Below are positions 6,860-28,178 of a DNA stretch of 32,000 bases, piece after piece. The translations under genes and the position numbers were made by a program. Origin of the DNA: Candidatus Saccharimonadota bacterium (GTDB lineage: Bacteria; Patescibacteriota; Gracilibacteria; UBA4473); the NCBI GenBank assembly GCA_020632335.1, contig JACKFV010000002.1, forward strand, positions 30,001 through 62,000, written 5' to 3'. Within the stretch, counting starts at the first letter, position 1, and the number at the start of each line of letters is the position of its first letter. A model generated the notes under the pieces. The model was not told the DNA's origin and made no database searches. It was given only the letters and a program-made list of their open reading frames with translations.

Positions 6860-7786
6860 CTATGGTAGCAATTCCTCCCAGCAGAGCAAGCCGCGCCGGA
6901 GCTGCAGCGTCACCCCCCCGAGCCGCTTCCTCGTGCCCCCCTGTGGCTGGGTCCGCAGCCACCGCAGCGCGTCATGCAGCTCTCGCGTGCCCACTGCCTG
7001 CCCCGCCATCTGGTACAGCAGCTCGCTCTGGAGGAAGGGATGCAGTGCTACAAACTCCCGCAGCGGGAGAGAATCCCGCTCCAGATACGGCGCCACGGTA
7101 GCCCGCAGGTAGTCGCTCAGGCGGGCAAAATACGCTGCTGAGCGGCCCATTACTTGGTCGAGATGCGGTGTGATGTGCTCGCACTCGGGCACCACGGCCT
7201 GCCGCAGCCGGTTGCGCGCGTAGGAGGTATCGGCGTTGCTGGGGTCCTCCAGATAGGGCACGGCGTACGCTGCCGCATAGGCGATGAGCGTGGATTTGGA
7301 CAGGGGCAGTAGCGGCCTGGTGCTGGGGTCTAGGGGGCTCAGGCCATGCGCGCTAGCCCCGGTGATGAAGCGGTAGAGCATGGTCTCGGTGAGGTCACCG
7401 GCGTGGTGGGCCGTCAACACGCGGTCTACGGGTTCGGTGGCGATGACCTGCGCAAAAATCTCCTGCCGAGCCGCTCGCCAGGTGGCCTCTTTATTACTCG
7501 TGGGTGGGGGAGGCAGGTGGTAGACCCGGCAGCGTATCGCCTGCTCCGCGCAGTACTGCTGCACCAGCTGCAGCGCCGCATCAGCATAGTGGCCTGTGCC
7601 GTGGTGTATCTGCAGCGCGAGGAGATGCTCTGGCCCCACCAGCTGCTGGTAACTATGGAGGAGCACCATGCTATCCACCCCGCCACTGACGGCGATGCAC
7701 ACCGGAGTGCGACTGGCCAGAGAAGCCTCATGAAATGCCGCTATGGTAGGGAGTACAGCGCTAAGCTCGTGCATCTGCTGCTGCAC
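6860..7786 (-). CDS. tilS: tRNA(Ile)-lysidine synthetase TilS
   Basis: PP-loop motif SGGVDSMVLLH near the N-terminus, with a typical TilS N-terminal ATPase region. The GTG start at 7786 overlaps the upstream stop by 1 nt. An alternative ATG lies at 7774. Confidence 0.85.
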   Translation of the reverse strand: MQQQMHELSAVLPTIAAFHEASLASRTPVCIAVSGGVDSMVLLHSYQQLVGPEHLLALQIHHGTGHYADAALQLVQQYCAEQAIRCRVYHLPPPPTSNKEATWRAARQEIFAQVIATEPVDRVLTAHHAGDLTETMLYRFITGASAHGLSPLDPSTRPLLPLSKSTLIAYAAAYAVPYLEDPSNADTSYARNRLRQAVVPECEHITPHLDQVMGRSAAYFARLSDYLRATVAPYLERDSLPLREFVALHPFLQSELLYQMAGQAVGTRELHDALRWLRTQPQGGTRKRLGGVTLQLRRGLLCWEELLP

Positions 7787-8220
7787 TAGTAGGGCCGCAA
7801 TGGCAGGCTCTCACACACGATACCGTCGTGGTCGCGGTCCAGCCCATGGACGTCGTTCCCGACGCCTCCACAGTCCTCAAAGACCAGCTGCGCCTCCTCA
7901 CGGTACTTGAAGTTGGCGCAGTTGAGGTTGACCGCGTTGCACTGGTCACCGATCAGCCAGGTGCCGTTTTCGGTCTGCTGCACCATAGACTCGGGCAGGC
8001 TGCCGCTCTCGATGAGTTTGCCCAGGTCAATATCCGTGCCGGATACCTCCAGACCCAGAGCCACCATTAGCACAATGATGAGCCCGAGGAGCCACAGGCG
8101 GAACTTCCCCCAGAAGACATACAGCAGCACGAGGATGAGTAGGAGCAGTCCCATCACCCCGAGCCGCCACCAGCGGTTACGACGCATGAGAGCGAGTGTG
8201 TTTTTCGTCTGAGCCTTCAT
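7786..8220 (-). CDS. membrane protein with C-terminal Excalibur calcium-binding domain
   Basis: Two N-terminal hydrophobic helices. C-terminal CANFKYREEAQLVFEDCGG...GLDRDHDGIVCE matches the Excalibur DxDxDGxxCE signature. Confidence 0.75.
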   Translation of the reverse strand: MKAQTKNTLALMRRNRWWRLGVMGLLLLILVLLYVFWGKFRLWLLGLIIVLMVALGLEVSGTDIDLGKLIESGSLPESMVQQTENGTWLIGDQCNAVNLNCANFKYREEAQLVFEDCGGVGNDVHGLDRDHDGIVCESLPLRPY

Positions 8221-8226
8221 ACGGAG

Positions 8227-8232
8227 AGCATA
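8227..8232 (-). promoter_or_regulatory. -10 hexamer TATGCT, 6 nt upstream of the ATG at 8220
   Basis: The minus strand reads TATGCT-ctccgt-ATG. Confidence 0.45.
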
Positions 8233-8290
8233 GCGGGATTTTCTCCTAGAGCAAGGCGTAGAGCGATACCGCTAGCGCGGGGCAGTCTGC

Positions 8291-8320
8291 TTGTACTTTC
8301 TCCGCAAAATGCAGTAGTAT
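8291..8320 (+). promoter_or_regulatory. promoter of the GH15-ROK operon: TTGTAC-18 nt-TAGTAT, 8 nt before the ATG
   Basis: TTGTAC at 8291-8296, TAGTAT at 8315-8320, ATG at 8329. Confidence 0.5.
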
Positions 8321-8328
8321 AGAGCTAC

Positions 8329-10323
8329 ATGCCCCAAGCCTATAGCCTGAGTAACGGGAACCTGCACGTCACCTTTGACGCCCACTTGCAGATGCGAGAC
8401 GTCTACTACCCCTATGTGGGGGAGGAGAATCACTCGGCATTTGGTGCGGCGCATCGGGTGGGGGTATGGGTGGCGGATAGTGACGGCCAGCACGAGAACT
8501 TCCGCTGGAGTACCGACCCCGAGTGGGAGATCACCTACCGCTACCTGCCCAGCACGCTGGTGGCCGAGACAGTGGCCACGCACCAGACCCTGGGCATACG
8601 GCTGACGGTACATGATGGGGTCTATACCACGCATGATGTACTGCTACGACGGTTTTCTGTCGAGAATCTCTACAGCGTGCCGCGTGAGGTGCGGCTCTTC
8701 TTCCACCATGATCTCTACCTCTATGGGGATAAGCAGCAGGACACCGCACAGTACGAGCCGGCCTACAACGCCGTGCTGCACTACCGGAATGAACGCTACT
8801 TCATGGCCAGTGGGCTGTGGGAGGGGACGGGCAAATCGCTCTACCAGTGGGCGGTGGGCAAGTCCCACTATGGAGATAAAGAGGGCACGTATAAAGACGC
8901 TGAGGACGGAGAACTGGGCCTGAACCCCATTGAGCAGGGGAGTGTAGATAGCGTGATTTCCTTCCGGGCGGTGGTGCCGAGTGAGGGGAATGCGACGCTC
9001 TGGTACTGGCTGGCCGCGGGCAAGAACTATAGCCAGGTCTGCCAGCAGCACGAGCGGGTGCTGAGCCTGACGCCTCAGCGGGTCTATGCGCATACGCGTG
9101 ACTACTGGCAGGCCTTCAGCCAGAAGCACCAGCGGTATCTGCCCGGACTGGGCACCGTGTGGGAGGACCACCTGCACCGCTCAGTACTGCTGATTCGCTC
9201 GCAGATAGATAATCGTGGGGCCATCATTGCGGCGTGCGACAGTGACATCATGAAGTTTAATAAGGATACCTATACCTACATGTGGCCGCGTGATGGGGCT
9301 ATTGTCTCTACCGTGCTCAGCCGCCTGGGGTACTGGCAGCCGGTGGAGCGGTTCTTTGAGTTCTGCGCGCAGATCATCATGCCCGAGGGTTATGTGATGC
9401 ATAAGTTTACCCCCAGTGGCGCGTTGGGCTCGTCATGGCACCCCAAGTACCGCAACGGCCAGGCCCAACTGCCGATACAAGAAGACGAGAGCGCGCTCAT
9501 ATTGCTGGCGATGGAGCGATACTACCACTACAGCCGAGGGATAGAAGTGGTACAGCGCCATTTCAACGGTGCGGTGCTGCGGCTGGGGGATTTCCTCCTG
9601 CGGTATGTGCAGCAGTCTACGGGGCTGCCTCGGCCCAGCTATGACCTGTGGGAGGAGCAGTATGGCGTGTTTAGTTACACCACGGCGGCTACCATAGCCG
9701 GGCTGCGGGCGGCGGAGAGGCTGAGCACCTGCACGGGGCACCTGGAGGATAGCGAGCGCTACCGCGTGGGGGCTGAGCGTATGCAGCAGGCGCTGGAGCA
9801 GTACCTGTGGAGTGAGGAGGCGTCGCGGTTTTTGAAGAAGCTCTCGGTAGGGCTGAACGGCAAATACACCCCCGACGCCACGGTGGATGCGTCGCTGTGT
9901 TTCCTCTGGAAATGGGGAGTTCTCCCTCCCGATGACCCCCGCATCGTCAGCACCATGCAGGCGATAGCGTCTACGCTCTCCGTCCAGAATGGCAGTGGTG
10001 GCGTGGCGCGCTATAGTGGGGATATGTACCAGCGGAACTACTCGCATAGCTATAGTGCTGCGGTGCCGGGCAACCCGTGGATCATCTGCACGCTGTGGCT
10101 GAGCCAGTGGTACACCGCTATGGCGCACACCCGCACGGACCTCCATAAGGCCAAGCAGCTGCTGGACTGGGCTGCCAGCACGGCGAATCCGGCCGGTATC
10201 CTCCCCGAGCAGCGGGATCCCTTCACCGGAGCGCCGCTCTCTGTCGCGCCGCTGACGTGGTCTCACGCCACCTTCATCGAGGCCATGCTGGACTACTCTG
10301 AGCGCTATGCCTCTCTTCAATAA
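8329..10323 (+). CDS. glycoside hydrolase family 15 protein (glucoamylase/trehalase-like)
   Basis: Motifs YMWPRDGA and SYDLWEEQYG (general acid region), and PLTWSHA near the C-terminus. The N-terminal beta-sandwich plus (alpha/alpha)6 length of 664 aa is typical of prokaryotic GH15. Confidence 0.85.
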   Translation: MPQAYSLSNGNLHVTFDAHLQMRDVYYPYVGEENHSAFGAAHRVGVWVADSDGQHENFRWSTDPEWEITYRYLPSTLVAETVATHQTLGIRLTVHDGVYTTHDVLLRRFSVENLYSVPREVRLFFHHDLYLYGDKQQDTAQYEPAYNAVLHYRNERYFMASGLWEGTGKSLYQWAVGKSHYGDKEGTYKDAEDGELGLNPIEQGSVDSVISFRAVVPSEGNATLWYWLAAGKNYSQVCQQHERVLSLTPQRVYAHTRDYWQAFSQKHQRYLPGLGTVWEDHLHRSVLLIRSQIDNRGAIIAACDSDIMKFNKDTYTYMWPRDGAIVSTVLSRLGYWQPVERFFEFCAQIIMPEGYVMHKFTPSGALGSSWHPKYRNGQAQLPIQEDESALILLAMERYYHYSRGIEVVQRHFNGAVLRLGDFLLRYVQQSTGLPRPSYDLWEEQYGVFSYTTAATIAGLRAAERLSTCTGHLEDSERYRVGAERMQQALEQYLWSEEASRFLKKLSVGLNGKYTPDATVDASLCFLWKWGVLPPDDPRIVSTMQAIASTLSVQNGSGGVARYSGDMYQRNYSHSYSAAVPGNPWIICTLWLSQWYTAMAHTRTDLHKAKQLLDWAASTANPAGILPEQRDPFTGAPLSVAPLTWSHATFIEAMLDYSERYASLQ

Positions 10324-10329
10324 CTCTCT

Positions 10330-11175
10330 ATGCAGGCTATTGGCATTGACATCGGCGGGACGAAAATGCTGAGTGTCCGCTATGACACCCGCACCTGGCA
10401 GCCACTGGAGCGCGTGCTGCACCCTACCGGGGAGGCGCTGACGATTCCTCAGCTGCGGGCTCTCCTGAGAGAGAGCATCACCGCGCTGCGTACCCCAACG
10501 GTGAGGAGCATTGGCATTGGCGTGCCGGGGGTGGTGGACGGGGGGAAGATCATCACACTACCGAACCTCCCTCAGCTGCAGGACGTCCCTCTGCTGGCAT
10601 TCCTCGAGCAGGAGACGGGGCTGCCTGTAGCGCTGGCTAATGACGCCAGTCTCTTCACTCTGGCCGAGCACCATGCTGCTGGTGGGGAGGGAATTACGCT
10701 GGGGCTCATCATCGGTACGGGGGTGGGGGTGGGGCTTTGCGTGGAGGGGCAGCTCTACCACGGGGCACATGGCCGCGCGCCGGAGATGGGCCATATACGC
10801 GTGCACCGCTCGGGGACGGCAACGGTGGAGCAACTCTTGGCCGGGCCGGGGCTGGCGCGCTTCTTTGCCACCGAGGATATGGCGGCGATAGAGGCCGAGT
10901 ATACGCAGCACGCTGAGGCCCTCACGGAGGAGATATACCCGCGGCTCCTGCTGCTGGTGGAGTTTCTCTACACGCTCGTGCGGGCGTATGATCCGCACCG
11001 GATTGTCATCGGAGGCAGCGCAGGGCTCTCGTTTTGGCAGCTCTTCGCGGAGGAAATAGCGCAGGAACTCCGCCACCGGTATCCGCTCCCGCACCCGTTG
11101 CCAGTGCTGCGGTGGTCTCAGACGACGGACGCCGGAGCCTTAGGAGCCGCGCAGTATGGGGCTAGAGCGCTCTAG
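10330..11175 (+). CDS. ROK family sugar kinase (putative glucokinase)
   Basis: N-terminal IGIDIGGTK ATP-binding motif and ROK glycine-rich signature LIIGTGVGVGLCVEGQLYHGAHGRAPEMGHI. The usual CxCGxxGC zinc motif after GH is absent. The gene starts 6 nt after the GH15 stop. Confidence 0.8.
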   Translation: MQAIGIDIGGTKMLSVRYDTRTWQPLERVLHPTGEALTIPQLRALLRESITALRTPTVRSIGIGVPGVVDGGKIITLPNLPQLQDVPLLAFLEQETGLPVALANDASLFTLAEHHAAGGEGITLGLIIGTGVGVGLCVEGQLYHGAHGRAPEMGHIRVHRSGTATVEQLLAGPGLARFFATEDMAAIEAEYTQHAEALTEEIYPRLLLLVEFLYTLVRAYDPHRIVIGGSAGLSFWQLFAEEIAQELRHRYPLPHPLPVLRWSQTTDAGALGAAQYGARAL

Positions 11176-13057
11176 CACGAGCGATGAGGACCGCCGCCTC
11201 GGCCCGGGTAAGCGGCGCGTGTGGGCGGTAGCTGCCGTCTTCATAGCCGCGTAGTAGGCCCCTCTCAGCGCCTAGCTGTACCCACGGGGCGTATTCGGGG
11301 CTGACGTCACTGAGGGCTACCGGGGGCTGTAGGGTGAGGTCTGGGCTCTCTCCTAGAGTGCGCAGCAGGGTGATAAGCGCCTCTATGCGGGTGATGGGAG
11401 CCTCGGGCAAGAGCGTACGAGTACCGTCACTCTCTGCATAGCCACGGAGGATACCCGCCTCGCTCAGCCCCAGTATCTCGCTCTGGTAGGGGTGGCTTGG
11501 TGGTAGGTCACGGTAGAGCCTCTCGCTACTGGCGCTGCTATACCCCCAGAGCAGCCCCACGGTGTGGAAGAATTCGGCGCGGGGTTCAGTCCACTGCAGG
11601 GCCAGCGTTCCCTCATGCGTGAGGTTCCAGGCGCCCGCAGCCCAGAGCTCCGCCGTGGCGTCCCAGGCCCAGTGGGTGGGGTCAGCGTCAGGGGCCAGGG
11701 TGAGCATTACAGGCCGCACCATCGTTTCTCCGCCCTCAGACAGGGTGACGCAGCGCTCGGTACAGCCGGGGGAGAAGCTGCCGGGGTACTGCCAGTAGAG
11801 TCTCTGGTGGGCTGTACTTCCCGGCTGCAGGGTAAAGAGCGGCTCTGGGAGAGGGTCGAGAAAATCCGCATGCGGTTGCGCAGGCCCGGTATACTCGGCC
11901 GTGGTGTAGGCAGGGCGATCATCCGCTACGCTCCCCATAGCGCTCCTGCGCCAGTGGTGCAGCCCGAGCACCTCTGACGGCGAGAGTACCAGCGCCTCCG
12001 GGTTCATCGTTTGCCAGTCCTCCCGCATCTGTAGAGGGATAATCGCCAGCGGAGCATCACTCTGTAGAGATAGCGGTTCACTCTCGGTCAGCAGGATAAC
12101 CGCGTCACCCTCGGGGCCAGGAGGCACTGCCCGGAGCAGCTCTGCGGTGAAGGACCCCCAGGGTTTGATCCCCTCCAGGCGGCTGAGGACCTCCCGCTGC
12201 AGCGCAAAGGTATTCTGCGTGGGGGCCGGCTCCAGCCACGCTAGTTCGTCTCGCAGCACTCCCACCCGCACTGGCAACCCCGGGAAGGCCTGGAGAATCC
12301 GCTTGGTGAGCGACTGCAGCTCTAGCCAGCGTGGCCCTAGTGCCGAGCCACTGGCGTCTATAAGGAGGGTGAGGTGGGTAGGCGTGACGGCCGTGGGGGT
12401 GAGAAACTGCAGCGTGGTGCTCTGGCTGCTGAGCGTCGGGGTTTTCTTCTCCGTCCACAGGAACGTGAGGCTAGCGGCACTATCAGGACTCCTCTGCGTG
12501 AGGGTATAGCGGCCATCCGGGTGCTGCGCTACGCGGTCATAGGGGTACTGCCAGTAGTACTCTGGCGGCGTGAGTAGCTGGGTATCGACCGTCAGCGTGG
12601 TGCTAGGGAGGGCGTCTGGCAGCGGCACGCGGGTGCTCGTCCAGCTGGCTTCTCGTACCAGTGGAAGGGGGAAGTGGTGGCTCAGACGCAGGGGCATACC
12701 GGCGGTCACGGGCAGGGTGAGGGGGAAGAGCGCGCGACCCTCGAGCGGGAGGGTGGTGGTCAGCTGGGCGTCCCAGAGAGTCTCCAGTGCCTGCTCATGT
12801 GGCAGTGGGGCGAGAGACAGCGGCTCCTCCGCGAGGAAAAACTGCGGCGTGGCCTCCGTCGGGAGCGTCCACAGGAGCGTCACCTCGCCCGTCACCAGGG
12901 GGGTGAATTCCTCGGTGATGAGCGCCTCCAGCATAGTGCTCTCCCGCTCCAGCAGGCTGACCGAGAGGGCATCACGGGTGAGCATAGCCTCGGGGTACCA
13001 CGCGTGGCAGAGGGGAGGCAGGAGGAGAAAAAGCAGCCAGCAGAGAGCTCGGAGCAT
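11162..13057 (-). CDS. secreted surface protein with VWA-like module and two C-terminal SLH repeats
   Basis: Signal peptide MLRALCWLLFLLLPPLCHA. MIDAS-like LLIDASGS. C-terminal SLH-like repeats (GILRGYAESDGTRTLLPEAPITRIEA and GLLRGYEDGSYRPHAPLTRAEAAVLI). The gene starts 3 nt after the gatA stop. Confidence 0.7.
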   Translation of the reverse strand: MLRALCWLLFLLLPPLCHAWYPEAMLTRDALSVSLLERESTMLEALITEEFTPLVTGEVTLLWTLPTEATPQFFLAEEPLSLAPLPHEQALETLWDAQLTTTLPLEGRALFPLTLPVTAGMPLRLSHHFPLPLVREASWTSTRVPLPDALPSTTLTVDTQLLTPPEYYWQYPYDRVAQHPDGRYTLTQRSPDSAASLTFLWTEKKTPTLSSQSTTLQFLTPTAVTPTHLTLLIDASGSALGPRWLELQSLTKRILQAFPGLPVRVGVLRDELAWLEPAPTQNTFALQREVLSRLEGIKPWGSFTAELLRAVPPGPEGDAVILLTESEPLSLQSDAPLAIIPLQMREDWQTMNPEALVLSPSEVLGLHHWRRSAMGSVADDRPAYTTAEYTGPAQPHADFLDPLPEPLFTLQPGSTAHQRLYWQYPGSFSPGCTERCVTLSEGGETMVRPVMLTLAPDADPTHWAWDATAELWAAGAWNLTHEGTLALQWTEPRAEFFHTVGLLWGYSSASSERLYRDLPPSHPYQSEILGLSEAGILRGYAESDGTRTLLPEAPITRIEALITLLRTLGESPDLTLQPPVALSDVSPEYAPWVQLGAERGLLRGYEDGSYRPHAPLTRAEAAVLIARARAL

Positions 13058-14588: not shown

Positions 14589-14597
14589 GAAGGAGTT

Positions 14598-15050
14598 TTA
14601 CAAGTATAGGACTTCTTTCAATAAATAAAAGAAAAATAGATGTATTATGAATCCTATCATCTGCATAGTTACTATGAAGGAGATCCACCCTGTAACGCCT
14701 AATACATCGAATGCAAGCACTAATATCAATAGGAGAGATGAGTATTCAAGTACTAATAGCTTCCAAAAATTTTTACGCAATTTTGGTATAGCTTTTATGT
14801 ATATTAGATAAGAACCAAGTCCTATGATAGCTAATCCCAAATGGATAGTAGTTATTGTAACTGTATGAGGAAATAAAGCCATGATATAGAATGTGATAGA
14901 GCACACTATAGTAACAAATAATGAGATAACGCCTGCGTAGAGGTATCTAGTGAGCCACTTATGGCTAGTGGTTTCAAAGGACCATGCCTCTTTGAAAAGT
15001 TCCCATCTCCGTTGTTCTGGAGATAGATTACAATTATCGGATTTTTTCAT
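14598..15050 (-). CDS. hypothetical 4-TM membrane protein encoded in a low-GC islet
   Basis: 150 aa from ATG 15050 (MKKSDNCNLSPEQ...). The ORF-track start at 15101 is a GTG extension. There are four long hydrophobic runs. G+C is 15/60 in line 14761-14820. No recognisable family. Confidence 0.55.
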   Translation of the reverse strand: MKKSDNCNLSPEQRRWELFKEAWSFETTSHKWLTRYLYAGVISLFVTIVCSITFYIMALFPHTVTITTIHLGLAIIGLGSYLIYIKAIPKLRKNFWKLLVLEYSSLLLILVLAFDVLGVTGWISFIVTMQMIGFIIHLFFFYLLKEVLYL

Positions 15051-15180
15051 AATATATATAATTCTTGAAATGATGAATAAATAAAAGAAATGACGCGCCA
15101 CAACTGCACTTGTGGAGGAGTCACCGGTACTGTACTACAGATGCAGTATTTTGTCAATATACCCTACTGGGGCACTGCGC

Positions 15181-20390: not shown

Positions 20391-21797
20391 CTACTCATAG
20401 GTGATGGCCTCTGTTTTTTCCGTGTACCGCCAGCGGTGCAATAGCCGCTCGTACCCCGGGCTGAAGAGACACCACCCCCACAGCACTATGAGGAGCCCGA
20501 GCACGCTATACCCCACCGTGGGGGAGACTACCCGTAGCGGGATGCTGGAGGTGAGCTGCGCCAGGTGCAGCGTGAGCTCGAGAAGACTCCAGACCCCCGC
20601 ACCCAGCAGGTAGCCCAGCCATGGGGTCACTGGCCCGAGCAGCAGTAGCACTACCCCCAGAAGCATCACCAGCGGGACAACTGGCTCGATGAGGACATTG
20701 GCGATGAGCCCCGCCGGGTACCACACCCCAAACTGCAGCAGCTGCAGCGGCAGAGTGCTGAGGGTCGCGATGAGACTCACCCCCAGGAGATCCCACAGCA
20801 GCCGAGACGCCCCTCGCAGTGCCACTCCCTCCCACAGCGGCAGCAGGGTAATAATGCCCAGCGTGGCCAGCACACTCAGCTGGAAGCCAATATCAAAGAG
20901 CAGTATCCTCGGCGTCACCGCGGCCATGAGCAGCACCGTCAGCAGCAGCACGTTGGGCATGTCCGCCATTCGCCCCTGGCTGATACCCCAGCCCGCCACC
21001 AGCCCCATGATGCTACTGCGCACCACTGGCGCGTCGGCCCCCGTCACCAGGCAGTAGAAGAGCACCACCCCCACACTACTCCAGAAGACCACCCGCCGCC
21101 CCAACCGTCGGAACAGGAGCGACACAAAGACCATCAGCACGGTGATGTTATAGCCGCTCACCACCAAGATGTGCTGGAGGGTACTGTGACGAAAAAGCGC
21201 CTCCGTGCGTGGTGGGAGGTCCTCCCGTATGCCCAGCAATATACCGCTGAGCAGCTGGCGGTGCGGCACGGGTAGCAGCCTTTTTAACCGAGATTCACTC
21301 CACTGTCGCAGGCTATAGGCCCACTGCAGGAGCGGATTTCCCTCAGCTGGTGCCACGAGCGCTGCCTCCTCCGCCCGCACAATATGTGTGATGCCATACC
21401 GCAGCAGGTAGCCCCGGTAGTCAAAACTCCCCAGCACGGTGGGCAGCTGCAGCTTACCGGTTATCTCCAGGCGGTCGCCATAGCCCCAGCTATTGTGCCT
21501 CTGGTCCCGCAGGAGCACCCGGGCGCGGGTCTGGCTAGCCGGTGGAGGGATATGCAGCCAGTCGTAGTACCAGTGGGGGCTGCTATAGTGGGTGAGCTCT
21601 AGCGTAGCCTGACGATGAGAGAGCCGTTGCTCAGGGAAGCTCACCACCTGCCCCAGGAGGGTCACCGGCTGCGCAAGCGGCAGCACTGGCACTGGTGGCG
21701 CTGGGCGCAGACTCCAGAGGGCCAGCAGCGCAATACCCATGCACAATAAAACCCGGAGTATGCGCTCCGGCGTAGCATAGCGGGCACTAGAGGTCAT
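20391..21797 (-). CDS. comEC: ComEC/Rec2 family DNA-uptake channel protein, without a C-terminal metallo-beta-lactamase domain
   Basis: N-terminal OB-like region followed by a polytopic competence domain (LLSGILLGIREDLP, many TM helices). 468 aa. Confidence 0.75.
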   Translation of the reverse strand: MTSSARYATPERILRVLLCMGIALLALWSLRPAPPVPVLPLAQPVTLLGQVVSFPEQRLSHRQATLELTHYSSPHWYYDWLHIPPPASQTRARVLLRDQRHNSWGYGDRLEITGKLQLPTVLGSFDYRGYLLRYGITHIVRAEEAALVAPAEGNPLLQWAYSLRQWSESRLKRLLPVPHRQLLSGILLGIREDLPPRTEALFRHSTLQHILVVSGYNITVLMVFVSLLFRRLGRRVVFWSSVGVVLFYCLVTGADAPVVRSSIMGLVAGWGISQGRMADMPNVLLLTVLLMAAVTPRILLFDIGFQLSVLATLGIITLLPLWEGVALRGASRLLWDLLGVSLIATLSTLPLQLLQFGVWYPAGLIANVLIEPVVPLVMLLGVVLLLLGPVTPWLGYLLGAGVWSLLELTLHLAQLTSSIPLRVVSPTVGYSVLGLLIVLWGWCLFSPGYERLLHRWRYTEKTEAITYE

Positions 21798-22558: not shown

Positions 22559-24640
22559 ATGACCAAGCACTATCCGCTCAACCGGGTTCGTAACATCGGT
22601 ATTATTGCGCATATCGACGCGGGAAAAACCACCGTGTCTGAGCGCATCCTCTTCTACACCGGGGTGAACCACAAGATAGGCGAAGTGCACGAGGGCCAGG
22701 CCACCATGGACTGGATGGAGCAAGAGCAGGAGCGGGGGATCACCATTACCTCTGCAGCCACCACGTGCTTCTGGAATGACTGCCAGATCAACATCATCGA
22801 CACGCCCGGGCACGTGGACTTCACCGTAGAGGTAGAGCGTAGCCTGCGGGTGCTGGATGGTGCGGTGGCGATCTTCGACGGGGTGAGTGGCGTAGAGCCC
22901 CAGTCCGAGACGGTATGGCGCCAGGCCGACCGCTATGGCGTGCCGCGCATGTGCTTTATCAATAAGCTGGACCGTACCGGGGCTAGCTTCATGCGCAGCT
23001 ACCAGAGTATCCTCGACCGCCTGTGTCGCGACGCCCTGCCCATCCAGCTGCCCATCGGCGAGGAAAGTGCCTTCAAAGGACTGGTGGATCTGGTGGGGAA
23101 CTGCGCCTATATCTACCATGATGACTTGGGGCAGGAGATCGAGAAGATTGCCATCCCGGCCGATATGACAGATCTGGCCGCGGAGTGGCGAGAGAAACTG
23201 GTGGAGAATGTGGCGGGCACCGACGAAGTGCTGATGCATAAGTACCTGGAGGAGGGCTCGCTGACCGAAGCAGAGCTCAAAGAGGGCATCCGTAAAGCCA
23301 CGCTCGCGGGGGATCTGGTGCCAGTACTCACGGGTACGGCGCTCAAGAACAAAGGGGTGCAACTGCTGCTGGACGCCGTAACGGCCTACCTCCCCAGCCC
23401 TCTGGACATCCCCCCTGCAGAAGGCAAAGACCCCGAGAACCCCGAGGTTACCCTGGTGCGCAAACCAGACGATAAAGAGCCCCTGGCAGCCCTGGCGTTC
23501 AAGGTAGCGACTGACCCTTATGTAGGGCGGCTGACCTTTGTGCGGGTCTACAGCGGAGTGATGGAGAGCGGCAGCTACGTCTATAACCCTACCAGTGGGC
23601 AAAAGGAGCGCATCGGGCGACTGCTGCAGATGCACGCTAATAAGCGGGAGGAGATCAGCGTGATCCCCGCGGGGCAGATAGGCGCGGTAGTGGGGCTGAA
23701 GAGCACCAAGACCGGCGAGACGCTCTGCGACGATAAACAGCCCATTGTGCTGGAGAGTATGGAATTCCCCGAGCCGGTGATTTCTATCTCCGTTGAGCCC
23801 AAGAGTAAGGCTGATCAGGAGAAAATGAGCCTGGCGCTGAGCAAGCTGGCGGAGGAGGACCCTACCTTCAAAGTGCATACCGACGAAGAAACCAACCAGA
23901 CCATCATCAGCGGTATGGGTGAGCTGCACCTGGATATCATTGTGGACCGTATGAAGCGGGAATTCAAGGTGGAGTGTAATATCGGTCAGCCGCAGGTGGC
24001 CTACCGCGAGACGATTCAGGAGGAGGTGGAGTCTAAGTACACGCACAAGAAACAGACCGGTGGACGCGGGCAGTTCGGGGAGGTGGTGTGTAAAATCCGC
24101 CCTGGTAAGCCGGGCCATGGCTTTGTCTTCATCAATAGTATCAAGGGGGCATCTATCCCGAACGAGTACATCCCCGGGTGTGAGAAGGGCTTTGCAGAGG
24201 CCATGACGCGTGGTATCCGCGCGGGTTACCCGGTGGTAGACGTGGAGGTCGAGCTCATCGACGGGAGCTACCATGACGTGGATTCGAGCGAGTTGGCATT
24301 CAAGATTGCCGCGGCACAGGCCTTCAAGGAGGGAGCCGTACGCGCTAAACCGGTCATCCTCGAGCCGATGATGAATGTAGAGATTACCACGCCAGAGGAC
24401 TACATGGGGGATGTCATGGGGAATGTGAGCGGTAAGCGCGGGATCATCCAGGAGAGTGGTGACCGTGGCCTGGCCAAGTACATCAAGGCGCAGATACCGC
24501 TAGCGAACATGTTTGGTTACGCCACTGACCTCCGGAGTATGACCCAGGGCCGCGCCAACTACTCTATGGAATTTGCCAACTACGTGAAAGCGCCGAATAC
24601 CGTAGCAGATCAGATCATCGCTGAGCGCTCCGGAAAGTAG
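22559..24640 (+). CDS. fusA: translation elongation factor G
   Basis: G1 [10 protein letters not shown]3 DTPGHVDF, G4 NKLD, and domains II-V clearly present. 693 aa. Confidence 0.96.
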
Positions 24641-24704: not shown

Positions 24705-24732
24705 TTGACCATATGCCCTCAGTTTCTACACT
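24705..24732 (+). promoter_or_regulatory. tRNA-Met promoter: TTGACC-16 nt-TACACT
   Basis: TTGACC at 24705-24710, TACACT at 24727-24732. The mature tRNA 5' end is at 24743. Confidence 0.55.
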
Positions 24733-24742
24733 CCGTACAGTG

Positions 24743-24818
24743 GGGCGAGTAGCTCAGAGGTTAGAGCAGGGCGCTCATAACGCCTTGGCCGGGGGTTCAA
24801 TTCCCTCCTCGCCCACCA
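24743..24818 (+). tRNA. tRNA with CAU anticodon (elongator Met, or Ile2 if C34 is lysidinylated), CCA encoded
   Basis: Acceptor GGGCGAG/CTCGCCC (G1-C72 paired, so not an initiator). D arm GCTC-AGAGGTTA-GAGC. Anticodon stem GGGCG/CGCCT with loop CTCATAA. T arm GGGGG-TTCAATT-CCCTC. A73, CCA at 24816-24818. Met versus Ile2 cannot be decided by eye. Confidence 0.9.
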
Positions 24819-24838
24819 TTTCATGTCATGACAAACAA
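24790..24838 (+). repeat. att-like repeat copy A (genuine tRNA-Met 3' part plus 20 nt downstream)
   Basis: TTGGCCGGGGGTTCAATT-CCCTCCTC-GCCCACCATT-tcatg-TCATGACAAACAA. Shares TTCAATT, GCCCACCATT and CATGACAAA with copies B and C. Confidence 0.6.
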
Positions 24839-24853
24839 CTTCCCTCATTTAAC

Positions 24854-25549
24854 ATGAAAGAAGATAATAAAAAAATATTTGGTGAGTACAGAAAAGAGGC
24901 TCTTGATTTTTGGAGGAAAGAAACGGGAAGAGCAGACGAAAAAGAATGTGAAGAGTCTTCAATTTACGAAGGTGCGTACGAATGTCGATGGCAAGGCGAG
25001 TTACCCGAACCAAAACATAACAGCTTTTTTTGCTCAATGGGTAATTTTGCAAGCAATGTAGATGATTTGTTGACTGATTCAAGGAGAGATGAAGTAGACA
25101 TTCAAAAAGCTTTGAATGATCCTGAAAATCATGATTGTGGAGCTTTGTACCGATTTTACACGCGTATTTTACTGGTTGCTGAAACAATCGTTGAAGATTT
25201 TGAGATGGTTTTACAAAAAGACCTTCCCAAGTCAGCAAAAAATTTGAAGAAATTTGTAAATGCTGTCATCAAGCATAGTTGTAAAAATGGACGAGGGATA
25301 CACTTTTACAAAAAAAACCACCACCTACCTCTTTTGATCGAACATTGGGGATTTGGTGATGATGATTCTGAAATGAAAGAATTGTCAGTTGATACGTTAG
25401 GCAAGGATGATTACAATTGCCTACGATTGCCAAGTCTTTACTCGATAGTTGAAAGTCTTCTTGATTGTTATAAAAAGCTGGATGAGAAACTTAAAGATGA
25501 TGATTTTGCGAAAAATTTTCACTATACCTATACAAAAACATGGGATTAG
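24854..25549 (+). CDS. hypothetical protein, 232 aa, orphan (cassette ORF 1)
   Basis: ATG at 24854 (MKEDNKKIFGEY...), in frame with ORF-track entry 24677-25549, whose first 59 codons read through the tRNA and are discarded. AT-rich codons. Several Cys and acidic patches. No motif I recognise. Confidence 0.6.
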   Translation: MKEDNKKIFGEYRKEALDFWRKETGRADEKECEESSIYEGAYECRWQGELPEPKHNSFFCSMGNFASNVDDLLTDSRRDEVDIQKALNDPENHDCGALYRFYTRILLVAETIVEDFEMVLQKDLPKSAKNLKKFVNAVIKHSCKNGRGIHFYKKNHHLPLLIEHWGFGDDDSEMKELSVDTLGKDDYNCLRLPSLYSIVESLLDCYKKLDEKLKDDDFAKNFHYTYTKTWD

Positions 25550-25598
25550 TAAGGGGTAGTGGCAAATTGCCTCCCTCCTACCCGTGACAATCTGTCAC
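25549..25598 (+). repeat. cassette junction element, copy 1
   Basis: GTAAGGGGTAGTGGCAAATTGCCTCC (25549-25574) plus CGTGACAATCTGTCAC (25583-25598). Begins at the last base of the ORF1 stop codon. Contains inverted repeats GGCAA-A-TTGCC and GTGACA-ATC-TGTCAC. Confidence 0.65.
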
Positions 25599-25688
25599 GA
25601 CCTGATGTAAATATTGCACCTGAGACGAGTTTGGATTTCCCCATTTTTGTACTACACTTTTAATGGTCATGACAAACAAGTCATCGTA

Positions 25689-25751
25689 CCGTTTGGCTGG
25701 TAGTTCAATTGCTGTCTTGTCTAGCCCACCATTGATTATCATGACAAAGAA
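25689..25751 (+). repeat. att-like repeat copy B (decayed tRNA-Met 3' segment)
   Basis: CCGTTTGGCTGGTAG-TTCAATT-GCTGTCTTGTCTA-GCCCACCATT-gatta-TCATGACAAAGAA. The block TCAATTGCTGTCTT (25705-25718) is identical to 26150-26163. ATG of ORF2 lies 21 nt after the core. Confidence 0.6.
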
Positions 25752-25754
25752 CTC

Positions 25755-26018
25755 ATGGAAAATCTAGAACAAGAAATACTCAGAATTAAAGAAAGAAATC
25801 AACAGAAAGAATGGGATAAGGCATGGGAAACTTCTCTTTTTCGAAAAGTTGTAATAGCTATTCTCACTTACTTGGTAATAGTACTTTTCTTCTATTTTGC
25901 TGAACTTCCTTCACCATTTATAAATGCAGTAGTTCCCACTCTAGGATTCGTACTTAGTACCCTCTCCTTACCTCTATTTAAAAGGGTTTGGCTCAGATAC
26001 TTTCATCAAGACAAGTAA
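25755..26018 (+). CDS. small membrane protein, 87 aa (cassette ORF 2): N-terminal coiled-coil-like segment plus 2 TM helices
   Basis: MENLEQEILRIKERNQQKEWDKAWETS..., then hydrophobic VVIAILTYLVIVLFFYF and VVPTLGFVLSTLSLPLF. The stop TAA lies inside junction copy 2. Confidence 0.6.
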   Translation: MENLEQEILRIKERNQQKEWDKAWETSLFRKVVIAILTYLVIVLFFYFAELPSPFINAVVPTLGFVLSTLSLPLFKRVWLRYFHQDK

Positions 26019-26064
26019 GGGTAGTGGCAAATTGCCTCCACCCCTGTTCGTGACAATTTGTCAC
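26015..26064 (+). repeat. cassette junction element, copy 2
   Basis: GTAAGGGTAGTGGCAAATTGCCTCC (26015-26039, one G shorter than copy 1) plus CGTGACAATTTGTCAC (26049-26064). Confidence 0.65.
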
Positions 26065-26089
26065 AGTCTGAAATACCTCAATCTCAAGA

Positions 26090-26120
26090 GGGGGACAATT
26101 TGTCCCCCTCCTTTTCTATT
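26090..26120 (+). terminator. hairpin GGGGGACAA-T-TTGTCCCCC followed by a T-rich tract; candidate terminator of ORF2, related to the junction palindromes
   Basis: 9-bp arms at 26090-26108 share the core GACAATTTGTC with 26052-26062. Followed by tccTTTTcTaTT. Confidence 0.5.
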
Positions 26121-26133
26121 CGTGACACTCCGT

Positions 26134-26196
26134 CCGTCTGGTTGAGGGGTCAATTGCTGTCTTCCCCATGCCCACCATTGCATGTTATGACACATA
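26134..26196 (+). repeat. att-like repeat copy C (decayed tRNA-Met 3' segment)
   Basis: CCGTCTGGTTGAGGGG-TCAATT-GCTGTCTTCCCCAT-GCCCACCATT-gcatg-TTATGACACATA. GCCCACCATTG at 26170-26180 is identical to 25724-25734. Confidence 0.6.
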
Positions 26197-26283
26197 ATGA
26201 TGAATAGAGAAGTAGAAGAAAGTACTTCTGGAAACAATTCTTTCAATAGACTATTGCAAAGAGGAATTACACCATCATTATGA
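26197..26283 (+). CDS. very short ORF, 28 aa (cassette ORF 3, possibly a remnant)
   Basis: ATGATG... encodes MMNREVEESTSGNNSFNRLLQRGITPSL*, hand-translated. It occupies the same position relative to att-like copy C as ORF1 and ORF2 do to copies A and B. It is too short to support on its own. Confidence 0.2.
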   Translation: MMNREVEESTSGNNSFNRLLQRGITPSL

Positions 26284-26359
26284 TTCTTTCAAAGCCATTT
26301 TTGCAGTATTTTAATAGAAGTCTACAACTATTGCATTGTGAAGTATCATCCCTTGATCC

Positions 26360-26387
26360 TTGCACTCGGGGCGCTTTTCAGTAGAGA
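26360..26387 (+). promoter_or_regulatory. candidate elp3 promoter: TTGCAC-16 nt-TAGAGA, 6 nt before the ATG
   Basis: TTGCAC at 26360-26365, TAGAGA at 26382-26387, then ggcact-ATG(26394). Confidence 0.4.
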
Positions 26388-26393
26388 GGCACT

Positions 26394-28178
26394 ATGAGCC
26401 TGCGCATCGCCAAGGACGCCTCTGGGCAGTATGTACACACGCCCTCTATGGAGGCGAAAAAGCACAAGATTGCCAGCTTTGGCACGCGTCAGCGGGTGGA
26501 GAATACCGCGGTGGTGGAGCGGTTCTTGCGCGAACTGGTGGCGGATATCCCCCCGGATAAGAAGACGCTCGAGCAGCGCAAGTACACTTTTGCGGCGGCG
26601 GAGCAGCTCCCACTCATCGAGAACCGGGACCTCATCGCCATCGCGCAGCAGTGGGAGCAGCAGGGGAATCCTGTACCAGAGACGCTCCTCCAACTGCTGC
26701 GGAAGCGCTCCGTGCGGACCATCAGCGGGGTCAGCCCCATTGGCATCCTCACCAAGCCCTACCCCTGCCCCGGCAAGTGCGTCTACTGCCCGACGGAAGA
26801 CCGCATGCCCAAAAGCTACATGAGCAACCAGCCCGCCGCGGCACGCGCCCTGCGGAATAAATTTCACCCCTATGACCAGGTCATCAACCGGCTGCACGCG
26901 CTGGAGGACAGCGGCCACCCCGTCAGCAAGCTGGAGGTGATCGTCATGGGCGGCACCTGGAGCTTCCTCCCCAAGAAATACCAGAGCTGGTACTGCAAGA
27001 AAATCTACGACGCGGCCAATGATGACGGGCGCGTACACGCCACGCACAAGAGTCTCTCGGCCAGCCAGCACGCTAATGAGACCGCTGCACGCAAGATCAT
27101 CGGGCTGACGCTGGAGACGCGCCCGGATTTCATCACCCCCAAGGAGCTCTACCGTATGCGCCAGTACGGCTGCACGAGGATAGAGATCGGGGTACAGACG
27201 CTGGACGACACGGTGCAAACCCTCACCAAACGGGGGCACAAGAAGGCCGAGGTAGTACGCGCTATGCGGCTGATGAAGGACTACGGGTTCAAGGTCTGCT
27301 GGCACCTGATGCCCGGGCTACCCGGCTCTACGCCCGAGAAGGACCTGCAGTGGCTGCGTGAGGTATTCGAGGACCCCGACTGCCGCCCGGACTTTGTGAA
27401 GATCTACCCCTGTGTGGTGCTGGAGACCGCTGAGCTGAAGCAGTGGTGGCAAGAGGGCCGCTACCAGCCCTACACCGACGAGCAGCTCATCAAGCTGCTG
27501 CTGCAGTTCAAGACCTTTGTACCGCCCTGGACGCGCGTCATGCGGCTGATGCGCGACATCCCCGTGACCAACATCCTCGACGGGGCCAAGTTCTCTAACC
27601 TTCGGCAGATACTGCGGTCTCAGCCCGAGAAGCTGCGCGAGATAGTAGGGGAGCAGTGGTACACCGCCTACCAGGCCGAGCGAGCCGAAGAGTCGGGGAG
27701 CTGGCCCTGCCGGTGCATCCGTTGTAGAGAGATTGGCTTCCAGAGCTTTGCCACCGCGGCAGAGGTGCCCGTGCCGGTGCTCAAACGCCGCAGCTATAGC
27801 GCCAGTGGGGGCACGGAGGAGTTTCTCAGCTTTGAGAGCGAGGACGAGCAGCACCTCTTTGCCCTGCTACGGCTACGGCGCCCCAGTGGGAAGAGCCCAC
27901 TACTACAGTGGGAGGGCATACTGGGGGAGGGCTGCGCGCTCATCCGTGAGGTGCACAGCTATGGGAGTGAGATCGCCGTGGGAGACAGTGCCGGAGTGGG
28001 GCAGCACCGCGGACTGGGCACACGACTCATGCACGAAGCCGAGCGCTTAGCGCGGGAGGAGTGGGGTTGCCACACCATGACGGTCATCGCGGGGGTGGGC
28101 ACGCGGGACTACTACCGCAGGTTTGGCTATACCCTCCAGCATACGTATATGGTCAAGCGTCTACTCCAGAGCCACTAG
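26394..28178 (+). CDS. elp3: Elp3-type tRNA uridine(34) modification enzyme (radical SAM plus GNAT acetyltransferase)
   Basis: Radical-SAM cluster motif in SGVSPIGILTKPYPCPGKCVYCP. Central TIM-barrel-like region (RIEIGVQTLDD). C-terminal GNAT acetyl-CoA motif QHRGLGTRLMHEAERLA. 594 aa. Confidence 0.85.
   Translation: MSLRIAKDASGQYVHTPSMEAKKHKIASFGTRQRVENTAVVERFLRELVADIPPDKKTLEQRKYTFAAAEQLPLIENRDLIAIAQQWEQQGNPVPETLLQLLRKRSVRTISGVSPIGILTKPYPCPGKCVYCPTEDRMPKSYMSNQPAAARALRNKFHPYDQVINRLHALEDSGHPVSKLEVIVMGGTWSFLPKKYQSWYCKKIYDAANDDGRVHATHKSLSASQHANETAARKIIGLTLETRPDFITPKELYRMRQYGCTRIEIGVQTLDDTVQTLTKRGHKKAEVVRAMRLMKDYGFKVCWHLMPGLPGSTPEKDLQWLREVFEDPDCRPDFVKIYPCVVLETAELKQWWQEGRYQPYTDEQLIKLLLQFKTFVPPWTRVMRLMRDIPVTNILDGAKFSNLRQILRSQPEKLREIVGEQWYTAYQAERAEESGSWPCRCIRCREIGFQSFATAAEVPVPVLKRRSYSASGGTEEFLSFESEDEQHLFALLRLRRPSGKSPLLQWEGILGEGCALIREVHSYGSEIAVGDSAGVGQHRGLGTRLMHEAERLAREEWGCHTMTVIAGVGTRDYYRRFGYTLQHTYMVKRLLQSH

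Follow-up and report, generated by a model that had tools for sequence, protein, structure and literature searches.

Tandem units bounded by tRNA-like site copies downstream of a tRNA(CAU) gene in three genomes

The tRNA(CAU) locus and its low-G+C island

The stretch analysed here, 32,000 nucleotides from Candidatus Saccharimonadota bacterium (GenBank assembly GCA_020632335.1, contig JACKFV010000002.1, positions 30,001 to 62,000; hereafter the window), carries between fusA and elp3 an intact tRNA(CAU) gene followed by a low-G+C island. Within this island the 3' half of the tRNA recurs twice, as copies B and C, and these copies bound two small units, referred to below as cassettes, each of which contains one open reading frame (ORF). 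Islands of the same layout follow the tRNA(CAU) genes of two unrelated genomes, at the loci designated L052 and L053. The features of the window locus are as follows.

22559–24640: fusA, which immediately precedes tRNA(CAT) in the local gene order
24705–24732: promoter-like sequence TTGACC-16-TACACT, 5' of tRNA(CAU)
24743–24818, + strand: intact tRNA(CAU), which anchors the array and provides its attB/attI-like site (ARAGORN; Rfam tRNA, 70.7 bits)
24781–24819, + strand: tRNA 3'-half segment, homologous by alignment to the cassette-borne site and ending in CCCACCAT (24812–24819)
24820–25732, + strand: cassette 1 (913 nt), consisting of left-end motif TTCATGTCATGACAAACAAC, ORF1, junction J1, leader and core B; G+C about 0.36
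24826–24838, + strand: left-end motif TCATGACAAACAA, containing the palindrome TGTCATGACA
24854–25549, + strand: ORF1, 231 aa plus stop; cargo
25550–25666, + strand: junction J1, homologous to J2, with the 21-mer GGGTAGTGGCAAATTGCCTCC (25554–25574) and the palindrome GTGACAATCTGTCAC (25584–25598)
25667–25687, + strand: module leader TCATGACAAACAAGTCATCGT, which aligns to positions 36–56 of the 100-nt L052/L053 module (CTGACAAAGAATTGCATCAC)
25688–25732, + strand: att-like core B, ACCGTTTGGCTGGTAGTTCAATTGCTGTCTTGTCTAGCCCACCAT (nhmmer E = 4e-11; 34 of 45 positions match the L053 core)
25733–26178, + strand: cassette 2 (446 nt), consisting of left-end motif, ORF2, J2 and core C
25755–26018, + strand: ORF2, a mobile cargo gene of wide distribution; 87 aa, two hydrophobic helices
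26015–26132, + strand: junction J2, with the 21-mer (26019–26039), the palindrome GTGACAATTTGTCAC (26050–26064) and a GTGACA leader remnant at 26122
26133–26178, + strand: att-like core C, TCCGTCTGGTTGAGGGGTCAATTGCTGTCTTCCCCATGCCCACCAT (nhmmer E = 6e-10)
26179 to about 26350, + strand: low-G+C remnant (third unit), with a degenerate left-end motif TTATGACACATAA at 26185–26197
26197–26283, + strand: ORF3, 28 aa, within the low-G+C remnant
26321–26349: promoter-like site for elp3
26394–28178: elp3 (radical SAM and GNAT domains), the next gene after the low-G+C stretch

G+C content is 0.35–0.39 (about 36%) from about 24850 to about 26350, as against 0.58–0.65 in the flanks; it is 0.54–0.62 upstream of the drop, returns to 0.61–0.64 downstream of about 26350, and is 61% for the genome of the window. 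This profile confirms the original prediction, made from the sequence alone, that composition falls at the CCA of the tRNA and stays low until about 26350, and the extent of the island is given here as 24820 to about 26350. The base composition of the island differs from that of its host in the window, whereas no such contrast exists in L052, a low-G+C genome. An independent assembly, Logan contig L024 (SRR12358675; 1611 nt), is 100% identical to 24759–26369. Its two ends lie inside the tRNA and 25 nt before elp3, that is, at both ends of the island, and these breaks may represent either a branch in the assembly graph, which would hint at island polymorphism and a heterogeneous population, or a G+C-dependent change in coverage.

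The anchor had been taken for tRNA-Met, and ARAGORN likewise reports Met(CAT). However, its best match in E. coli is annotated as tRNA-Ile and is present in two places per genome, as expected for ileX/ileY; on this ground the anchor is probably the lysidine-dependent tRNA-Ile2. A TilS-like PP-loop gene is located in the window at 6860–7786.

Cassettes 1 and 2 are each bounded by copies ending in CCCACCAT, and the boundaries of cassette 1 were placed according to the occurrences of this motif at 24812–24819 and 25725–25732. The predicted succession of site, ORF and junction is thus present in two units, but the third unit, which had been described as truncated, has no terminal att copy, no match to the module and no significant similarity to cassettes 1 and 2; the possibility that it is a truncated copy of ORF1 or ORF2 was rejected for the last reason. 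As for the ORF lengths of 232, 87 and 28 aa given earlier, the second and third are right, and ORF1 (24854–25549) has 231 aa plus the stop codon.

Another low-G+C islet exists at 14590–15100 (about 45%, as against 61–65%), between gatA and a Na/Ca exchanger gene. Its ORF (14598–15101, − strand) encodes a membrane-like protein of 167 aa that has no match in Pfam or PHROG, and only a weak match in NCBIfam, to a Bf21-family immunity protein (E = 0.0027). Since this islet has neither a tRNA nor an att-like copy, foreign single-gene insertions seem not to be confined to the tRNA site.

Site copies in three genomes

The last 38 nt of the tRNA, together with about 22 nt of its flank, recur at 25688–25753 (B) and 26133–26199 (C), and a repeat search recovered the two copies as 25689–25718/25721–25753 and 26134–26163/26167–26199. 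The local alignment of 24781–24840 (the 3' end of the tRNA and its flank) gave scores of 26.5 with B and 23.5 with C. As a null model, the best score anywhere in the island was taken from each of 1000 dinucleotide-preserving shuffles (mean 9.7 ± 1.3, maximum 16.5), and in none of the 1000 were the observed scores reached. The recurrence of the tRNA 3' segment holds, and its similarity to the tRNA is far better than chance; with the tRNA part alone, p = 0.003 for B and p = 0.023 for C. The similarity is specific to tRNA(CAT), against which the cores score 9–20, as compared with 5–9 against tRNA-Gly and tRNA-Tyr. The idea that B and C are closer to a low-G+C tRNA than to the tRNA of the window was dropped, the scores being equal.

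Several shorter repeats are superimposed on this pattern. The 10-mer GCCCACCATT (24811, 25724 and 26170) and the block TCAATTGCTGTCTT, identical in 14 of 14 positions at 25705 and 26150, are present where they had been described. The 21-mer GGGTAGTGGCAAATTGCCTCC lies directly 3' of the stop codons of both ORFs (25554 and 26019), in agreement with the earlier view that ORF1 and ORF2 end in a common junction element; the two intergenic regions, after ORF1 and after ORF2, are homologous over about 200 nt, beyond the tRNA-like part. The 13-mer TCATGACAAACAA is found at 24826 and 25667 as claimed, but its second occurrence is part of the module leader and not a separate partial copy of the tRNA. 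No further occurrence of any of these four motifs was found in the 32-kb window.

Palindromes of the form GACAAT(N)TGTC, namely GTGACAATCTGTCAC, GTGACAATTTGTCAC and GGGACAATTTGTCCC (26092–26106), exist within the window only in the junctions and are absent from the L052 and L053 modules; they could be protein-binding sites or hairpins. A scan of genome contigs with GTAGTGGCAAATTGCCTC showed that a 22-mer of J2, GTAGTGGCAAATTGCCTCCACC (26021–26042), has exact matches in two metagenome-assembled genomes (L008 1266–1287 and L010 918–939). In the Peribacteria one the match lies where a GT2 ORF ends, in the Clostridia one it is inside an ORF, and neither has a tRNA or a low-G+C island. These matches exceed the prediction of a uniform model, but their contexts are unrelated, and they are probably a coincidence.

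In L052, a contig of 1.93 Mb with 30% G+C, rplI is followed by tRNA(CAT) at 4743–4818, and then, over 8 kb, by five full and five partial site copies, all of them on the + strand, which is that of the tRNA. Between these copies lie the genes for an unknown 199-aa protein, two small genes on the − strand, a GIY-YIG-like gene with an AbiLi/AbiLii pair, an ORF2 homolog, and a second AbiL pair on the − strand. The two AbiLi/AbiLii anti-phage systems, at 7744–9608 and 10533–12445, are in opposite orientations and in separate units, and as they are carried as units of the array, such arrays can act as defence islands. In L053 (40% G+C), the 3' half of tRNA(CAT) is followed by an ORF2 homolog and then by one site copy, 6 nt past which a terminator-like hairpin starts. 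A group I intron of about 490 nt (Rfam RF00028, 62 bits) splits the anticodon loop of the L053 tRNA(CAT) gene (9417–9980), because of which the gene was missed by ARAGORN.

Between L052 and L053 the ORF2 units have 88% identity over 423 nt, with the homology ending exactly at CCCACCAT and the sequences unrelated beyond it, so that a unit of 383 nt with identical boundaries is present in both. Cassette 2, from core B to the end of its ORF, has 69% DNA identity to these units. The ORF2 unit takes the second place of the array in the window, the fourth in L052 and the first in L053. The three genomes differ in the number, content and order of their cassettes and do not share an identical and syntenic region, by which the prediction would have been refuted. 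Nor do the copies look like a scattered repeat family, such as repetitive extragenic palindromes (REP) or miniature inverted-repeat transposable elements (MITE), since in the approximately 72 kb sampled (32 kb of window, 20 kb of L052 and 19.5 kb of L053) all significant site matches are inside tRNA(CAU)-anchored islands, on the strand of the tRNA. Scans of viral contigs for the site and for ORF2 gave nothing relevant, and in phage and plasmid collections the site matched phage tRNA genes only and ORF2 was absent.

Eight internal copies from the three genomes were aligned. The consensus of the site is ACCGTTTGG-N5-GGTTCAAT-N2-CTGTCTT-N5-CCCACCAT, with 22 columns invariant in all eight copies, and the 45-nt site can be abbreviated as CCGTTTGG..GGTTCAAT..CTGTCTT..CCCACCAT. 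Its match to the tRNA begins with the 3' strand of the anticodon stem and extends to the CCA end, but in place of the T stem's 3' strand it has CTGTCTT and five extra bases, so that the site cannot form a T arm. Because this non-tRNA form is kept in hosts of 30%, 40% and 61% G+C, it seems to be a sequence under selection and not a tRNA fragment in decay. That B and C represent an element-borne site, as opposed to a decayed tRNA, is thus strongly supported by the sequence comparison, the CTGTCTT variant being kept in every one of the internal copies. The full module, of about 65–100 nt, consists of a leader, which carries TGACAAAGAA about 10 nt 5' of the core (in the window, the second 13-mer mentioned above), and the 45-nt imitation of the tRNA 3' half.

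To the right of CCCACCAT, TTTATGTCATGACAAA(C/G)AA is found downstream of all three tRNAs, of B and C in the window, and of copy c3 of L052. At these six places the left-end motif sits 3–6 nt past CCCACCAT, and a + strand start codon follows 3–22 nt after it; outside the arrays, only a few scattered matches to the motif were found in 432 kb of loci. The sequence right of CCCACCAT differs in five of the eight internal copies. As these other units have unrelated left ends, conservation across all copies is one-sided.

No conserved secondary structure was found in the eight copies: their consensus fold has an energy of −2.9 kcal/mol with a positive, that is, unfavourable, covariation term, and a search against Rfam matched only the true tRNA. 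Folding of the site in the manner of an attC or of a tRNA was therefore rejected, and the site, being conserved in sequence and not as a hairpin, is not an integron attC. Since all three genomes have an intact tRNA, whose T arm the cassette copy could not replace, a crossover would have to lie at or after the last shared bases, CCCACCA(T), and for the same reason a crossover in the anticodon loop or the T loop was rejected. The place at which homology stops, between genomes as well as between copies, is CCCACCAT, in agreement with this position.

Such sharp boundaries bear on whether a site-specific enzyme is needed at all. The units could also have been joined by homologous recombination, for example after natural transformation, with the tRNA gene and the modules serving as homology arms. 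A ComEC-type competence protein is encoded in the window at 20391–21797, exact runs such as GGTTCAATATCTGTCTTG are common to the L052 cores, and J1 and J2 are closer to each other than to the modules of the other genomes, as would be expected under gene conversion. However, the tRNA resembles B and C only in patches, the longest exact run being about 10 nt, well under the usual need of RecA-type recombination; the distal flank has no second homology arm; and a clean unit boundary at CCCACCAT is not what this route would leave. We regard it as improbable.

Cargo genes and the assembly of the array

The ORFs of the window had been regarded as orphans, which does not hold for the two cassette genes. 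ORF1 is identical (100%) to the NCBI protein H6771_03200, and an exhaustive HMMER search placed it in a family of 114 representative clusters, although it has no match in Pfam, PHROG, PADLOC or NCBIfam. Exact look-ups of window proteins gave no other record. Its AlphaFold (AF2) model, made from an alignment of 41 sequences, has a pLDDT (predicted local distance difference test) of 90.3 and no Foldseek match in PDB or BFVD. The invariant residues of the family are C60, D79, D115, N136, K140, H141 and H157, and one distant homolog is located beside GmrSD, DUF4365 and adenosine deaminase genes, a context resembling that of defence islands.

ORF2 has more than 1500 homologs with 60–76% identity in bacteria of the candidate phyla radiation (CPR), including Pacebacteria, Nomurabacteria, Komeilibacteria and Liptonbacteria, and in Woesearchaeota (DPANN archaea). 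In 26 metagenome loci with ORF2 homologs there is no adjacent tRNA and no site copy, so ORF2 is usually found outside such arrays. Three related assemblies in which UGA is read as a sense codon (code 25), L054–L056, provide a different setting. In these, + strand ORFs separated by attC-like imperfect palindromes (L054 2605–17000; also in L055 and L056) lie downstream of a divergent tyrosine recombinase of 273 aa, which is encoded next to tilS and passes the NCBIfam XerA/integron integrase model (226 bits; cut-off 220). One of the cassettes is an ORF2 homolog, whose upstream neighbour differs among the three assemblies, as does the order of the cassettes, and in L054 the sequence before ORF2 is an attC R' box and not the tRNA-like site. 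ORF2 thus appears to be a mobile cargo gene.

These loci also bear on the suggestion that the repeated elements act in cis as signals for RNA or expression, be it as tRNA-like processing sites, as terminators or as promoters, at intervals along an operon driven by the tRNA promoter, and were duplicated along with intergenic regions. In favour of such a role, all + strand cargo ORFs begin 3–22 nt past the TCATGACAAA motif, there is no terminator between the tRNA and ORF1 whereas J2 has a strong terminator-like hairpin (26088–26110, followed by a T run), and GTGACA-17/18-TAAATA/GAAATA in J1 and J2 can be read by eye as promoters, which the promoter scan did not report. But the lack of a conserved fold and of Rfam matches other than the true tRNA, described above, is contrary to an RNA signal, and the copies are without the 5' acceptor strand that a tRNA-like minihelix needs. 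Moreover, many cargo genes of L052 are on the opposite strand, and the foreign G+C content and the variable order of units would be left unexplained. As the 26 metagenome loci of ORF2 have no such element and L054 has an attC-type site in its stead, the element is not the regulatory region of ORF2 itself. This explanation seems very improbable.

The original prediction had noted that the island holds no recombinase, and this can be extended: no Phage_integrase or other recombinase domain is present in any sizeable ORF of the 32-kb window, nor was an integrase or recombinase found in the L052 (20 kb) and L053 (19.5 kb) loci. The ORFs identified in the window encode EngA, an M23 peptidase, LigA, the TilS-like protein, GH15, ROK, GatA, CTP synthase, ComEC, L19, EF-G, Elp3, GDH and a P-type ATPase, and the remaining sizeable ones are unknowns without a recombinase domain. 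None of the eight complete units of the three genomes, which range from 383 nt to 2.8 kb, has a recombinase or a recognisable integrase fragment, and neither an integrase-bearing neighbour nor remnants of genes for integration or conjugation were found in the three loci. With the same layout, and one shared unit, in two unrelated genomes, the locus looks like a gene-capture site without a recombinase of its own.

On slight balance we favour the view that small att-bearing cassettes accumulated serially at the 3' end of tRNA(CAU) by site-specific accretion, catalysed by a recombinase acting in trans. The island would then be a tandem array of very small integrative units, each consisting of one or more cargo genes followed by the conserved site, that were inserted one after another. 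The site of a circular unit would recombine with CCCACCAT at the end of the tRNA or at a resident copy, an exchange that would leave the tRNA intact and add one more tRNA-like copy downstream; both the use of CCCACCAT as the crossover core and the circular intermediate are our inference from the arrangement. As no unit is big enough for a recombinase and none encodes one, the enzyme would have to be supplied in trans, by another part of the genome or by a helper element. The + strand cargo may be expressed by read-through from the tRNA promoter. If cassette 2 is excised in this way, the junction of its circle should join the C core to TGATTATCATGACA, with TGTCTTCCCCATGCCCACCAT abutting TGATTATCATGACAAAG, and the corresponding deletion should join the B core to TGCATGTTATGACA, with CTTGTCTAGCCCACCAT abutting TGCATGTTATGACAC.

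The same units might be fossil scars, that is, islands or prophages with integrases that were integrated serially at the tRNA, lost these integrases and most of their cargo, and became fixed as immobile remnants. Tandem islands of Dehalococcoides, half of which are without integration modules (PMC3146451), offer a precedent, and decay of this kind is the standard model for cis-mobilizable elements (CIMEs; PMC5704250). The several partial and degenerate site copies in L052 and the truncated third unit of the window are also as expected from decay. However, not one of the eight complete units retains an integrase or a fragment of one, and even those of 383–446 nt keep an intact ORF and a well-conserved module. 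The occurrence of the 383-nt ORF2 unit with the same boundaries in two genomes, and a site that is a conserved non-tRNA variant and not a set of independently decaying tRNA ends, are likewise difficult to attribute to decay. We consider fossil scars rather unlikely.

Several observations weigh against trans-acting accretion as well. No recombinase was found in the three loci, and no circular junction or empty site was seen. Only the left side of the presumed crossover is kept in all copies, which is unusual for a simple tyrosine-recombinase core, and there is no conserved hairpin to supply a second half-site. Some units of L052 hold several (two or three) genes, or genes on the − strand, and the array of the window is without a proper terminal copy. 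Only three arrays are known, two of which were found through ORF2, which biases the sample, and the differing place of the ORF2 unit in L052 and L053 could be due to insertions upstream of it and not to its own movement. Finally, the closest Elp3 homologs reach an identity of only 68%, and the loci in which they lie (L002–L007) are not syntenic with the window.

Relation to known systems and significance

The present arrays have their closest documented counterparts in the tandem ssrA islands of Dehalococcoides and in the CIMEs, and they differ from both. The Dehalococcoides islands are bounded by a 20-bp ssrA repeat, beside which lies an element-borne motif, and of 31 islands 16 have a serine recombinase module (DsiB), whereas the 15 without an integration module were proposed to be cis-mobilizable (McMurdie et al. 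2011, PMC3146451). Like these islands, the arrays are tandem, lie downstream of one small RNA gene, have direct repeats of its 3' end bounding each unit, carry beside the repeat an extra element-borne motif that does not match the gene itself, are low in G+C, and are variable in content (between strains in Dehalococcoides). The Dehalococcoides islands, however, are many kb in size, whereas the eight units here are of 0.38–2.8 kb and are all without a recombinase; the repeat is a 45-nt imitation of a tRNA 3' half with a leader, in place of an exact 20-bp repeat; and the target is tRNA(CAU) of CPR-type genomes, and not ssrA.

CIMEs are att-flanked elements without integration genes and are defined as decayed integrative and conjugative elements (ICEs) or integrative and mobilizable elements (IMEs) (PMC5704250); for their site-specific accretion in the ICESt1 family, that review cites Pavlovic et al. 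2004 (its reference 79). The cassettes resemble them in being att-flanked, without integration or transfer genes, and in tandem at the 3' end of a target gene. CIMEs are mobilised by an adjacent related ICE, whereas no integrase-bearing neighbour and no remnants of decay are visible in the three loci examined here, and the units are of single-gene size and all have a common conserved module.

With integrons and clusters of attC sites lacking integron integrases (CALINs), the arrays share small units of cargo and 3' site in one orientation, a fixed platform, variable content and order, and promoterless + strand cargo for which a promoter upstream could provide expression; in the integron-like array of L054, moreover, the ORF2 family is a real cassette. 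Unlike integrons, the arrays have no adjacent intI in the 32-kb window or the L052 and L053 loci, their platform is a tRNA gene, and some units of L052 are multi-gene or on the opposite strand. The site, in contrast to attC, is conserved in sequence and has no imperfect palindrome of R''/L''-L'/R' boxes, whereas L054 does show attC-like palindromes. Islands that target tRNA or tmRNA genes are also found at the 3' end of an intact gene with direct repeats downstream, as in all three loci here, but no integrase of their own was found in these loci. Integrative mobile elements exploiting Xer recombination (IMEXs), for example the CTX and TLC phages at dif, use the Xer recombinases of their host. 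They too have no recombinase of their own, depend on a host tyrosine recombinase and accumulate in tandem at one chromosomal site; the target here, however, is the 3' end of a tRNA and not dif, and there are no two inverted arms around a short spacer of 6–8 bp.

Little is known of the mobile elements of CPR bacteria or of the ways in which these bacteria gain genes, and the locus suggests a compact means by which single genes, and anti-phage systems such as AbiL in L052, could be captured at an essential tRNA gene. Should a recombinase acting in trans be found, the locus would be an integron-like platform with a different site logic, and CCGTTTGG-N5-GGTTCAAT-N2-CTGTCTT-N5-CCCACCAT after tRNA(CAU) would be a signature by which variable and defence islands in CPR genomes could be searched for. 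Since ORF2 is 60–76% identical across CPR bacteria and Woesearchaeota and is present in both types of array, it is a candidate for the traffic of cassettes between domains. More tentatively, and as a possibility short of the probable, tRNA(CAU), probably tRNA-Ile2, may be the platform of a dedicated cassette-capture system in CPR-type bacteria that is functionally parallel to integrons: a recombinase from elsewhere would recognise the 45-nt mimic of the tRNA 3' half, cassettes of single genes or defence systems would be inserted at CCCACCAT, with the tRNA promoter driving their expression, and the pool of cassettes would be common to these arrays and true integrons and would extend over both bacteria and DPANN archaea.

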